Numbered from the stretch's first letter, positions 2,275 through 48,302 are shown. The stretch is 64,000 nucleotides of DNA from Enterobacteria phage RB18 (NC_054906.1); one strand, 5' to 3'. The notes: generated by a model not told the origin, from the letters alone. Made by a program: numbers and translations.

Positions 2275-3899
<1,625 letters not shown>

Positions 3900-23665: not shown

Positions 23666-23672
23666 TTTGTGT

Positions 23673-23726
23673 TCCTCATGTTATGTCAGTAAGACTACTA
23701 TAACACAATATGAGGGACTTGTAAAC
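23673..23726 (-). repeat. 54-bp leader element, copy A (early-type promoter GTTTAC-N18-TATAGT plus leader stem-loop) upstream of alt.-3-like gene
   Basis: 51 of 54 identical to 38812-38865; -35 at 23721-23726 overlaps stop of Alt paralog. Confidence 0.7.
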
Positions 23727-25783
23727 TACATTTTGAACTTTTTAGACATTCCGTTGATGTTAACCAAAGAAGCTAAGATTTGAGAAACTTCGTTTTCCTC
23801 TTCTTTTGATTCTTCTACAAGGAATTGATTAAATCCAGCCATTGGACGAACTTCTCCGGTTTCCATTAGATAGTCACCATCATATACTGATTCTTCTAAT
23901 TGTTCAGAAGGAGGAACGATTGTACCTTCGATTAGATACTTGTTATAAGCAGTTTCTTTCATAAAGTAAGTACTTACTTTATTAATCTTCAGTAAAATTC
24001 CACGCGGTAGAATAACTTCAGCTTCTGATGGAAATCCTGTTAAATGACCTGGAACGATAACTTTGATTCGCTCAGCTCCTTTAATTACCATACCCACGCT
24101 AGTTTCAGCATCTTCATTAGCATATGTAGAATGACTACCCATATGCATCAAATCTTCTGCATCAACAGAACCTTCTCCTTCACCAGAAAATACTGCGCCG
24201 GAATCATCTAGAGCCATATAGTTTTTACCATGCTCACCGAAGATATTTGGTTTAAGTGATGTCGATACGAAGTTCTTGAAATAGAACATTTTGTTTTCAA
24301 TGTTATGACGCAAAGTTTTAAAGGTAACTTCTTGTCCACGATAAAGCGTAGTTCCTGGAGGAAGAACTGAACCTTTAGCGAATGCAGAATCCAACGTCTC
24401 GATGTGCTTAATAGCTCGTTCCATATATTCTTCACGGGTAGAATCTGGTTTACCCAAAAGGAACGAGTTCATTTCAACATATGAATCTGCACAATAATCT
24501 TCAATTACATCAGATTCAGCTTGAGTTAATCCTTTTGGAGTTACTTCGGTGCTTGCGTATTCATATGCCTGAGCAGCAGATTCATTAATCAATTTATAAA
24601 TGCCATTCATGACAAATTGAATAATAGCTGTCTTTTCATCTGGCGTAGCTTTAGAACCTTTAACCAAATCATTGATAATTTTCTTAATAACATCAAAGCT
24701 ATTAGAAATATTAATATCAGCAAGATCGCTTAAAATTTTATCAGTTTTATAATCAAAGAATTCTTTATTCTTTAAATATTCTTGAGAACCTTGATATGTT
24801 ATATCGCTCTGCAACTTGATGGATGGATCACGTAAACGTGCATGGGCTAATGCAATATGATTTCGGAAGTTTTCTAGTTCATAATCGCTAGATTTAAAAC
24901 GAGAAGCACTCCTCATACCACCGATAGCTCCTTTGTTGAAGTTTGAACCAATCTGAATAACGCCAGAGTTCATTGGTCCTTCTGCTTTATATACCGGAAC
25001 TTTGGATTCAAACTCTTGATATTTCTTAGCAGCGAAGCTATCACCCTGAAGTGAAGCATCAACAGTAGAATATTGAGCTTGTGCTGCTAATCGACGACTA
25101 ATTTTAGTTTTCTGAATAACAGCTTGGTCAGTGCGCTTATCATTTTCTAAAGCAATAGAAGCAGCAACTGCGACAGCTTTAGGAACAGCATTACCTGTTT
25201 TAACGTCTACATAAACATCACCAACCTTTGATTCAACTTTTGTGAATAACTCAGCTGAAATAGGAGGTACACCTGGAATGTCTTCTAAATTGGCATTTTT
25301 ACGGTAAACCATAATATATGCATATTTCTTATCATAGTCCCAGATTTCCTTTAAAAGAACATATCGGCCTGCTCCTTTAGTACGTACTAAACGGTCAGCA
25401 ATAACTTGCATTTGACGAGCAGCGCCATTTGTTTTACTCTTTAGTACGCGGAATAAGCATGCATCAATTTTATACTGTTTCATTGTTTGAAGAGCAGTAT
25501 CAAAAACAGCATTAATGACGCCAATTGGATTTCCACCCAAGTTTTTAAGCTTAACTAATGATAGTTTCTCATTAACACCTATCATTACGATATGCATCAT
25601 TTTGTCGCCTGGCTTAACGTTTTTATTCGTATCACCGCCAGAGGTGTATGTACAAAATCTAAATCCGGGGAGAACGCTTTCTTCACCGGCTTGAATAGCA
25701 AAAATTTGTGGTATTTTATGCTTAGGATTTAAGTTAACAACCGGCGCCGAAGCGCCGTCAAATAATTCTGTAATAAGTTCCAT
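23726..25783 (-). CDS. Alt-like mono-ADP-ribosyltransferase paralog (685 aa), intact
   Basis: N-terminus MELITELFDG identical in type to Alt; C-terminal R (LYRGQ), STS (FVSTSL) and EAEV motifs; diverged central region. Confidence 0.85.
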   Translation of the reverse strand: MELITELFDGASAPVVNLNPKHKIPQIFAIQAGEESVLPGFRFCTYTSGGDTNKNVKPGDKMMHIVMIGVNEKLSLVKLKNLGGNPIGVINAVFDTALQTMKQYKIDACLFRVLKSKTNGAARQMQVIADRLVRTKGAGRYVLLKEIWDYDKKYAYIMVYRKNANLEDIPGVPPISAELFTKVESKVGDVYVDVKTGNAVPKAVAVAASIALENDKRTDQAVIQKTKISRRLAAQAQYSTVDASLQGDSFAAKKYQEFESKVPVYKAEGPMNSGVIQIGSNFNKGAIGGMRSASRFKSSDYELENFRNHIALAHARLRDPSIKLQSDITYQGSQEYLKNKEFFDYKTDKILSDLADINISNSFDVIKKIINDLVKGSKATPDEKTAIIQFVMNGIYKLINESAAQAYEYASTEVTPKGLTQAESDVIEDYCADSYVEMNSFLLGKPDSTREEYMERAIKHIETLDSAFAKGSVLPPGTTLYRGQEVTFKTLRHNIENKMFYFKNFVSTSLKPNIFGEHGKNYMALDDSGAVFSGEGEGSVDAEDLMHMGSHSTYANEDAETSVGMVIKGAERIKVIVPGHLTGFPSEAEVILPRGILLKINKVSTYFMKETAYNKYLIEGTIVPPSEQLEESVYDGDYLMETGEVRPMAGFNQFLVEESKEEENEVSQILASLVNINGMSKKFKM

Positions 25784-31859: not shown

Positions 31860-32225
31860 TTAAATATCAAATTCGTTAAGAACTACATCAAAGATTGCTT
31901 CAAGATGCTCAGGTTTAGCTCTGTTACTCAGAATATGACGAATCCAAGTTTTAACCAAAAGCTTGCGATTAACGCCATTCCAGCAAGGATGAGTCCCTAA
32001 ATCGCGTTCACGGAAATCATCATCCAGAGCGATTTTAAAGTTGGAACCTTCCATCGTGATTGAAACCGTGATACCGTTTTCAAATCGCATATAAACGTAA
32101 TTAGGAGTCATATACTGCTCAATTTCGCATACTGATCCATTTTGATGTTTCCAGAGGCAAATAGTATCAATAGAACCTGCAATACCATTAGAAACATATT
32201 TACGTTCAAAGTTAATGTAGTTCAT
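31860..32225 (-). CDS. Hypothetical protein (121 aa)
   Basis: Track start is TTG 32237; first ATG 32225 preceded by GGAG; early-type promoter upstream. Confidence 0.6.
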   Translation of the reverse strand: MNYINFERKYVSNGIAGSIDTICLWKHQNGSVCEIEQYMTPNYVYMRFENGITVSITMEGSNFKIALDDDFRERDLGTHPCWNGVNRKLLVKTWIRHILSNRAKPEHLEAIFDVVLNEFDI

Positions 32226-32250
32226 TTTATTCTCCAAGATGTTTAATTGC

Positions 32251-32290
32251 GGTACAGGTATATAATATCATATCCTGTACCAAAGTAAAC
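32251..32290 (-). promoter_or_regulatory. Early-type promoter GTTTAC-N17-TATTAT with 8-bp inverted repeat (GGTACAGG / CCTGTACC) centred on the -10
   Basis: -35 = rc of 32285-32290; -10 = rc of 32262-32267; IR arms 32251-32258 and 32274-32281. Confidence 0.6.
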
Positions 32291-32292
32291 AA

Positions 32293-32625: not shown

Positions 32626-32652
32626 TTTATTCTCCTTTGTTTGTGTAAGATA

Positions 32653-32682
32653 ATACTATCACAAAGGAACCATACTGTAAAC
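32653..32682 (-). promoter_or_regulatory. Early-type promoter GTTTAC-N18-TAGTAT
   Basis: -35 = rc of 32677-32682; -10 = rc of 32653-32658. Confidence 0.55.
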
Positions 32683-32700: not shown

Positions 32701-32731
32701 GAAAATAAAAAAGGACTCCCGAAGGAGTCCT
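32701..32731 (-). terminator. Rho-independent terminator GGACTCC-CGAA-GGAGTCC + T-run (minus strand)
   Basis: 7-bp stem, tetraloop, TTTTTATTTTC on minus strand. Confidence 0.8.
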
Positions 32732-32735
32732 CAAC

Positions 32736-35520: not shown

Positions 35521-35559
35521 GGTAGAGCTATAATATCACAACTCTACCGTAAAGTAAAC
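35521..35559 (-). promoter_or_regulatory. Early-type promoter GTTTAC-N18-TATTAT with 7-bp inverted repeat (GGTAGAG / CTCTACC) centred on the -10
   Basis: -35 = rc of 35554-35559; -10 = rc of 35530-35535; IR arms 35521-35527 and 35542-35548. Confidence 0.6.
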
Positions 35560-38804: not shown

Positions 38805-38811
38805 CATAAAG

Positions 38812-38865
38812 TCCTCATGTTATGTCAGTAAGACTACTGTAACACAACACGAGGGACTTGTAAAC
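38812..38865 (-). repeat. 54-bp leader element, copy B (GTTTAC-N18-TACAGT plus leader stem-loop) upstream of alc
   Basis: 51 of 54 identical to copy A at 23673-23726. Confidence 0.7.
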
Positions 38866-38868
38866 AGC

Positions 38869-40456
<1,588 letters not shown>

Positions 40457-47226: not shown

Positions 47227-47261
47227 AGGCTATAGTATCACTACCATAGCCTGTTGTAAAC
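47227..47261 (-). promoter_or_regulatory. Early-type promoter GTTTAC-N18-TACTAT with 7-bp inverted repeat (AGGCTAT / ATAGCCT) around the -10
   Basis: -35 = rc of 47256-47261; -10 = rc of 47232-47237; IR arms 47227-47233 and 47246-47252. Confidence 0.55.
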
Positions 47262-48222: not shown

Positions 48223-48252
48223 ATAGTACCATGGAAGAACAGGGATGTAAAC
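48223..48252 (-). promoter_or_regulatory. Early-type promoter GTTTAC-N18-TACTAT for the acidic 82-aa ORF
   Basis: -35 = rc of 48247-48252; -10 = rc of 48223-48228. Confidence 0.55.
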
Positions 48253-48275: not shown

Positions 48276-48302
48276 ATAAAAAAGGGGACCCTAGAGGTCC
48301 CC
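48276..48302 (-). terminator. Rho-independent terminator after gene 32: GGGGACC-CTAGA-GGTCCCC + T8 (minus strand)
   Basis: 7-bp stem, A-run 48276-48283 on plus strand. Confidence 0.85.

Follow-up and report, generated by a model that had tools for sequence, protein, structure and literature searches.

Inverted repeats at the early promoters of T4-like phages were found to pair the promoter spacer with the leader of the same promoter. The dyads combine specific complementarity with covariation, a wobble bias in the sense strand, an association with early promoters and an absence of terminator features. Stem-loops at T-even early promoters are of a kind already published as the promoter-early stem-loop (PeSL), and the promoters concerned are identical in T4. 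From comparison of sequences we lean towards reading the dyads as the T-even form of PeSL, i.e. as hairpins of read-through RNA which, depending on their class, would mask the Shine-Dalgarno (SD) sequence or form a boundary. We infer that the hairpins form in vivo and that they have such roles.

Dyads at the early promoters of the window

The DNA investigated, referred to as the window, is a stretch of 64,000 nucleotides of Enterobacteria phage RB18 (NC_054906.1). It is 97-98% identical to Tequatrovirus phages, e.g. slur02 and slur04, and collinear with approximately 99-162 kb of T4; the phage is a Tequatrovirus. The ORFs located 3' of four dyads described in an initial annotation correspond to the T4 genes 30.7, 30.8 and cd.2 and to a frd.1-like gene, and in T4 the promoters of 30.7, 30.8 and cd.2 carry identical arms. 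All eight arm coordinates of that annotation proved exact, and at all four sites the dyad lies, as had been claimed, inside a minus-strand promoter of the form GTTTAC-N17/18-TAnnnT (Table 1). The transcribed minus strand shows a constant layout of GTTTAC, spacer with the 5' arm, -10 hexamer, 3' arm, SD and ATG. Leaders are short (20-38 nt), the four genes are small and lie in the plastic early region, and the DNA upstream of all GTTTAC-N17/18-TAnnnT sites is AT-rich.

The perfect repeats of 7-8 bp that had been described are real but incomplete, in that the stems, helped by G·U pairs, continue into the -10 hexamer. Folding of the intergenic RNA predicted stems of 11-23 pairs including G·U pairs (9 bp at P30.8), which comprise the -10 hexamer and in two cases reach the -35 hexamer. 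Fold energies ranged from approximately -12 to -26 kcal/mol with z-scores from -1.6 to -5.2, and z was -3 or lower in four of six folds. Further versions of 12-13 bp are present in the window at the promoters of alc (38836) and alt.-3 (23697), where their G·U pairs had caused them to be overlooked. As the annotation had stated, the arms differ in sequence from site to site; a shared half-site is absent. Its conclusion that the dyads are not one repeated element applies to the arms, but not to the promoters, which are related cassettes and in some cases (alc/alt.-3) repeated as a whole. No Rfam family matched anywhere in the window.

Table 1. Promoters, dyads, predicted hairpins and terminators in the window
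Feature	Position	Strand	Remarks
P30.7 dyad	32251-32258 / 32274-32281	(-) promoter	GGTACAGG/CCTGTACC
P30.7 -35 hexamer	32284..32289	(-)	GTTTAC; same in T4
P30.7 -10 hexamer	32262..32267	(-)	TATTAT; apical part of predicted hairpin
P30.7 5' arm	32274..32281	(-)	RNA sense GGUACAGG; within promoter spacer
P30.7 3' arm	32251..32258	(-)	CCUGUACC; ~-3 to +5 of own start
P30.7 full predicted read-through hairpin	32240..32291	(-)	-20.1 kcal/mol, z -4.6
Gene 30.7 SD	32232..32235	(-)	GGAG; unpaired in predicted hairpin
Gene 30.7 start codon	32223-32225	(-)	
P30.8 dyad	32634-32640 / 32661-32667	(-) promoter	CCTTTGT/ACAAAGG
P30.8 early promoter	32653..32682	(-)	-35 32677-32682; -10 TAGTAT 32653-32658
P30.8 5' arm	32661..32669	(-)	UUCCUUUGU; in spacer
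P30.8 3' arm	32632..32640	(-)	ACAAAGGAG; SD of gene 30.8, start codon 32623-32625
Canonical intrinsic terminator	32711..32732	(-)	GAGGACUCC-UUCG-GGAGUCCUU + U-run; immediately upstream of P30.8, separate from dyad
cd.2 dyad	35521-35527 / 35542-35548	(-) promoter	GGTAGAG/CTCTACC
cd.2 early promoter (T4 Pe133295)	35530..35559	(-)	-35 35554-35559; -10 TATTAT 35530-35535
cd.2 predicted hairpin	35521..35548	(-)	12-bp stem, 35537-35548 with 35521-35532; part of -10 included
frd.1-like dyad	47227-47233 / 47246-47252	(-) promoter	AGGCTAT/ATAGCCT
frd.1-like gene early promoter	47232..47261	(-)	-35 47256-47261; -10 TACTAT 47232-47237
frd.1-like predicted hairpin	47227..47252	(-)	11 bp, AGGCUAUGGUA / UACUAUAGCCU; GUGA loop
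alc early promoter predicted hairpin	38809..38859	(-)	-25.7 kcal/mol, z -5.2
alt.-3 early promoter predicted hairpin	23671..23718	(-)	-17.2 kcal/mol, z -2.2; 3' arm = SD
Canonical intrinsic terminator	48284..48302	(-)	3-nt loop + T-run; directly upstream of 48223-48251 early promoter

At P30.7 the 5' arm is unchanged in approximately 20 phages of four genera, and the sole variants of the 3' arm are C to U substitutions, giving G·U, in phages L008 and NHEP36. A search of IMG/VR with gp30.7 yielded 14 close relatives only, whose invariant arms are uninformative for covariation. The invariance of the 30.7 arms would also fit a protein-binding site. In the predicted fold UGUUUA of the -35 region pairs with UAAACA of the leader, and predicted SD accessibility is higher in read-through RNA than in the gene's own transcript (0.70 vs 0.55). 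RegB cleavage in T4 has been mapped experimentally to the GGAG, which lies 16 nt downstream of the hairpin (PMC9409239).

The P30.8 fold is weaker (-12.1 kcal/mol, z -1.6), and the 3' strand of its 9 bp is the SD itself. Predicted accessibility of this SD, calculated for the T4 copy, fell from 0.91 in the own transcript to 0.36 in read-through RNA. A conserved 'sequence for stem-loop structure' is reportedly listed among the features of the 30.7-30.8 region in the abstract of Truncaite 2006. In P30.8 of Mosigvirus (RB69, L020 ~32033-32100, minus strand; PECP20; NHEP36; mar005P1) the spacer carries CCTGTAGG and the region after the -10 hexamer CTTGTACC; each is similar to the 3' arm of the adjacent P30.7 hairpin, and the two are not complementary to each other. 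The -10 hexamer of RB69 P30.8 is degenerate (TTCTAT).

The whole cd.2 fold reached -18.1 kcal/mol (z -4.5), with weak outer pairs extending to the SD, and predicted SD accessibility decreased from 0.73 to 0.47 in read-through RNA (rank 11 of 33). The T4 record (NC_000866) carries a note at 133300-133313 (L001 8301-8314; approximately 35528-35541 of the window), 'inverted complement of previously reported sequence; corrects the early promoter Pe133295', and the 14 bp corrected there separate the two cd.2 arms. Either a past sequencing artefact or a real inversion may have been brought about by the inverted repeat. In phages VR7 (L021 ~20802), TH22 (L024 ~20839) and C6 (L026 ~4515) the site orthologous to the cd.2-region promoter carries the palindrome CACCATGGATGGTG, which lies wholly inside the spacer in place of arms bracketing the -10 hexamer. 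Spacer-internal CCAC...GTGG / ACACC...GGTGT could also be observed in the RB69 rnlA, RB69 alc and T4 ndd.6-proximal early promoters.

At the frd.1-like site (47232) the 3' strand of the stem is the -10 hexamer itself (-15.6 kcal/mol, z -3.0). The RB69 orthologue has ATAGGGCU/AGCCCUAU and the T4 promoter at this place AGGGUA/UACCCU, so that three phages show three different complementary arm pairs.

Pairing is specific to each promoter

Duplex energies were calculated between the 24 nt before the -10 hexamer and either the promoter's own 48 nt after the -10 hexamer or those of other promoters, an own-versus-cross comparison that retains every consensus feature. Values were -11.9 (own) vs -8.4 kcal/mol (cross) for ten promoters of the window, -13.2 vs -8.3 kcal/mol (z = -12) for 33 early promoters of the T4 genome and -10.9 vs -7.8 kcal/mol for 49 distinct promoters of Mosig-, Dhaka-, Gapriver- and Gelderlandvirus; in each set none of 20,000 derangements reached the own value. 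In T4 the own partner was ranked top in 15 of the 33 promoters (p ~1e-14).

Perfect inverted repeats of at least 7 bp with a loop of 8-26 nt were present in four of the ten GTTTAC promoters of the window vs 4.5% of random 50-nt windows (binomial p = 7e-4). Dyad symmetry is thus commoner at these promoters than at control sites, and the objection foreseen in the initial annotation, that it might be no more frequent there than at random or might be missing from orthologous promoters, fails on both counts: the T4 orthologues have dyads as well. Approximately 60% of T4 early promoters carry a dyad; among the remaining ~40% are those of motA, srd, sp and asiA. Co-directional intergenic regions of T4 had a mean fold z of -2.6 with an early promoter vs -0.7 without one (p = 0.006). 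The promoters of rnh and segD are the sole early ones in T4 at the head of a unit without a co-directional upstream gene; both have weak dyads, which, with n = 2, fits the RNA model.

Evidence for pairing in the sense of the mRNA

Own stems contained 26 G·U vs 8 A·C mismatches when read in the mRNA sense, compared with 642 vs 763 in cross-pairs (p = 4e-4). This count scores G·U and A·C alike and is a cleaner test than the comparison of sense and antisense energies, in which sense duplexes were more stable by 2.1 kcal/mol vs 0.8 for cross-pairs (11 of 20,000 derangements). The bias of sense over antisense was small in promoters from outside Tequatrovirus (-0.60 vs -0.33). Pairing appears to occur in the mRNA sense; no wobble bias would be expected of an operator in double-stranded DNA or of a cruciform. 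Single substitutions in orthologues were likewise compatible with wobble in the sense strand, namely the C to U changes in the 30.7 3' arm of two phages, and A-U to G·U and U·G to U-A in cd.2 orthologues.

An alignment of the cd.2 site (eight sequences, three genera) showed a 9-bp helix in which 98.6% of cells were paired, a value reached by none of 500 shuffles, and slid registers gave 21-56%. Three pairs were changed on both sides (GGTAGAGTT/AGCTCTACC vs GGTAGGACT/AGTCCTACC). As all three compensations fall in one lineage they count as one event, which may be a single change or the replacement of a cassette. Compensated differences could also be observed in the motB-type family (GGGACC/GGTCCC vs GGGAGC/GCTCCC, with a series G-C to G·U to A-U) and between dmd and mobD.2 (GACAAGACT/AGTCTTGTC vs GACAAGATT/AATCTTGTC, C-G to U-A). 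These comparisons of sequence support the view that it is pairing, not sequence, that is preserved from site to site and from phage to phage.

Read-through RNA and the ribosome-binding site

In the mechanism proposed here, the 17-18-nt spacer, the only part of a T4 early promoter with unconstrained bases, carries the complement of the 10-25 nt that follow the -10 hexamer. RNA from an upstream promoter would fold into a hairpin whose apical part contains the -10 hexamer. By promoter geometry the own start lies in or after the 3' arm (T4 Pe133295 lies inside the cd.2 3' arm), so that only read-through RNA holds both arms; since only this RNA would fold, the hairpin would distinguish it from promoter-proximal RNA. 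The initial annotation had proposed either hairpins of the upstream transcript or operators of a dimeric repressor. Kept pairing, sense-strand wobble and the start inside the 3' arm support the former; the latter is at odds with the absence of a shared arm sequence, the compensatory changes and the strand asymmetry.

Two anatomical classes may be distinguished. In Class B (P30.8, alc and alt.-3 in the window) the 3' arm is the SD itself, from which poor translation of read-through RNA is predicted; this is the logic known for T4 e, soc, 49 and I-TevI, carried over to early promoters. At alc the spacer CCUCGUGUUGUGU pairs with ACAUAACAUGAGG, which is the SD, in a 12-13-bp stem with two G·U pairs. 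In Class A (P30.7, 47232 and, largely, cd.2) the predicted hairpin ends 5-15 nt before the ribosome site and leaves it open. The Class A hairpin is most likely an intercistronic boundary, which might block 3' exonucleases after cuts by RegB or another RNase at the next SD, insulate the ribosome site against sequence lying upstream, or both. RegB products are attacked from their 3' end by host exonucleases, and the idea of a boundary derives from this and from the position of a RegB site downstream of the 30.7 hairpin.

In terms of predicted accessibility, native upstream sequences masked the SD more effectively than nearly all foreign ones at nine T4 promoters (30.8, alc, regB, ndd.4, nrdC.8, nrdC.10, mobD.5, e.8 and motB.2), where they ranked 1-4 of 33 (p = 0.014). 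In an open class (30.7, dmd, motB, ipI and frd.1x) the site was as open or more open, with ranks of 26-33 of 33. Over all 33 T4 promoters, native upstream sequences masked no more than chimeric ones (p = 0.27), and masking as the single function of the dyads was dropped on this result. Nor can it be a general function, because the SD is unpaired at P30.7 and 47232 and meets only weak outer pairs at cd.2. As a tentative extension, which we regard as possible rather than probable, more than half of T4-type early promoters could contain a built-in sensor of transcript origin, the spacer acting as an anti-leader and, in roughly one case out of three or four, as an anti-Shine-Dalgarno sequence, with translation or RNA handling then differing by transcript origin.

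Relation to known systems

According to Arbiol 2010 (PMC2839356), a PeSL as defined in RB49 and phi1 consists of an early promoter with a stem-loop mostly between the -35 and -10 hexamers or over the -10 hexamer; G-T pairs are drawn, roles as terminators or attenuators and as recombination linkers are proposed, and AT-richer analogues are placed on T4 early promoters at the ip loci. Stem-loops at T-even ip loci had been noted earlier by Repoila 1994, as cited in PMC2839356 and PMC4122927. Comeau 2014 (PMC4122927) describes PeSLs in the pair PST/T4 with the consensus TTTACW-N17-TAYWAT and variable stems. The dyads share with PeSLs a strong sigma-70-type early promoter whose upstream region is AT-rich, the position of the stem-loop with its G-T pairs, a 3' end formed by the SD and ATG of a small gene, and a location among small early genes in plastic regions; with the PST/T4 pair they also share the consensus and the variable, AT-richer stems. 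The RB49/phi1 stems differ in being G-run/C-run stems on TTGACA promoters, one of which cut reporter expression, whereas the stems described here are AT-richer, unlike at every site and without a T-run. The word 'translation' is absent from Arbiol 2010, and both PeSL papers discuss termination and recombination, not translation.

Hairpins that sequester the ribosome site and contain an internal promoter are known for T4 e, soc, 49, I-TevI/II/III and segB (PMC3014915, PMC2988022); those at late promoters mask the ribosome site, and this logic is established for late genes only (PMC3014915). In these systems, as in the model proposed here, the promoter lies inside the hairpin, the proximal transcript, having no 5' arm, can be translated, and longer transcripts fold and hide the SD. 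This anatomy is shared by P30.8, alc and alt.-3 in the window and by regB, denV, ndd.4 and nrdC.8 in T4. The known cases, however, have late (or middle) promoters (TATAAATA is late) that delay expression, whereas the internal promoter here is an early GTTTAC promoter and the effect would be to confine translation to the immediate-early period. Also in contrast to the known cases, P30.7 and 47232 do not sequester the SD in the predicted folds, and cd.2 does so weakly.

The lac O1 operator, LexA boxes and lambda OR/OL resemble the dyads in their symmetry centred on the core promoter, but the dyads have no common half-site, variable spacing, compensatory changes and strand-specific wobble. With intrinsic terminators and REP-type 3' barriers they share a stable hairpin right after the stop codon at a cistron boundary; no U-tract is present at the dyads, which are thus not canonical terminators. 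By analogy, a role as stabiliser is plausible for hairpins of the P30.7 type, located upstream of a mapped RegB site.

Promoter cassettes

The promoters of alt.-3 (23669-23733, minus strand) and alc (38806-38872, minus strand) are one cassette of approximately 60 nt (GTTTACaagtccctc..ttgtgtTAyAGTagtcttactgacataacatgagga) ahead of unrelated genes. Its copies are distinguished by two positions of the 5' arm (G/A); alc has G·U at both, and in the alt.-3 copy one is A-U and the other is unpaired. The promoter at 48223-48251 (minus strand) belongs to the same cassette as T4 146839, with an entirely different 18-nt spacer. Its spacer atccctgttcttccatgg is one base off that of T4 e.8 (atccttgttcttccatgg), and the T4 146839 spacer aagcataaagctttatgg is a spacer-internal palindrome common to the T4 nrdC.10 promoter; on account of these two matches, spacers seem to have been exchanged between promoters. 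The terminators at 32711-32732 and 48284-48302 form back-to-back terminator-promoter units with their promoters.

In Dhakavirus and Gaprivervirus an extra ORF directly follows the cd.3-proximal promoter. In CGG4-1, a Salmonella phage of Gelderlandvirus (L030 ~3701-3774), the match comprised only the 73-nt cd.2 promoter cassette (78% identity), which lies in another genomic neighbourhood, upstream of a trna.4-like gene, and has a dyad of its own, GAGGGTT / AACCCT. The ORF insertion, the 48223 spacer swap and the CGG4-1 relocation are anecdotal cases of possible cassette exchange. In the T4 167050 region (L005) an 8-codon ORF, MKIAEIEL*, comes after the early promoter that precedes ndd.6; its start copies the leader and N-terminus of imm.1, and it looks like a remnant of cassette recombination.

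Alternative explanations

An accidental origin of the dyads, or one in which the promoter consensus produces them as a side effect in AT-rich DNA, is hardly credible. Short apical pairs of UGUGA with UAUUAUA do derive from the consensus TGTGA-TAYTAT and are expected at many promoters, and 17% of random 50-nt windows contain a perfect 6-bp inverted repeat; own pairs, however, beat cross-pairs that preserve the consensus in three independent sets (0/20,000 in each), and the own partner came first in 15/33 T4 promoters. Operators at which a dimeric phage or host repressor silences early promoters would account for symmetric sites centred on the -10 hexamer and for the invariance of the 30.7 arms across genera, and according to PMC3014915 it is not fully understood how T4 early promoters are shut off. 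We nevertheless consider this explanation very improbable: the arms differ at every site without a common half-site and their cross-pairing energy equals background, cd.2 orthologues change in sequence yet keep their pairing, arm position and loop length (4 to >20 nt) vary, the wobble bias is strand-specific, and many 3' arms are the SD of the next gene.

Termination or attenuation of upstream transcription, insulating each small early gene as the PeSL authors proposed, agrees with the position of the hairpins at gene boundaries, straight after the upstream stop codon, with stable folds of -15 to -26 kcal/mol, and with an experiment, reported in PMC2839356, in which a PeSL stem-loop of RB49/phi1 placed between promoter and lacZ cut expression approximately like rrnB T1. 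That lacZ test, however, does not separate termination from translational masking, and the G-run/C-run stems of RB49 are unlike those described here. None of the four dyads is followed by a T-run (tails are GCAATTAA, AAACAAAT, TATCAACT and similar), and a terminator scan of the window reported none of them; as canonical intrinsic terminators they were rejected on these features of the sequence. The same scan detected textbook terminators with a GC stem and T-run just upstream of two of these promoters, so that the phage appears to use a different device where termination is needed, and we regard a terminator role as unlikely. The strong terminator just upstream of P30.8 also means that little read-through RNA may exist there. 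A role in DNA, with the dyads as recombination linkers or cruciform sites for the shuffling of promoters with their genes and RNA folding as incidental, appears less likely still. Several observations suit it, namely the alc/alt.-3 cassette ahead of unrelated genes, the 48223 spacer with its counterpart at T4 e.8 instead of the T4 orthologue, the extra ORF after the cd.3-proximal promoter in Dhakavirus and Gaprivervirus, the displaced cassette in Gelderlandvirus, the T4 record of a loop between the cd.2 arms once reported inverted, and published evidence for PeSL mini-circles. Recombination of cassettes, however, requires identity between promoters, not self-complementarity within one; shuffling can follow from repeated promoter cassettes without explaining the stems; compensatory change preserves pairing; and a cruciform or double-stranded DNA predicts no strand bias, in conflict with the excess of G·U over A·C.

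Implications

Stem-loops that overlap T4-like early promoters are already in the literature, and the finding as such changes little. The quantitative picture of specific pairing, covariation, mRNA-strand bias and two anatomical classes was not found in the literature surveyed. One of these classes is predicted to hide the ribosome site of regB, alc, denV and 30.8 in read-through RNA. If this masking is true, it bears on the switch-off of T4 early protein synthesis and matters for the design of insulated phage expression cassettes. If, moreover, the reading of the promoters as sensors of transcript origin is true, the device known from the late genes e, soc and 49 and from I-TevI would be extended genome-wide to early genes such as regB, alc, denV and 30.8, and there would be a post-transcriptional reason why many early proteins stop after promoter shut-off despite read-through and middle transcripts.
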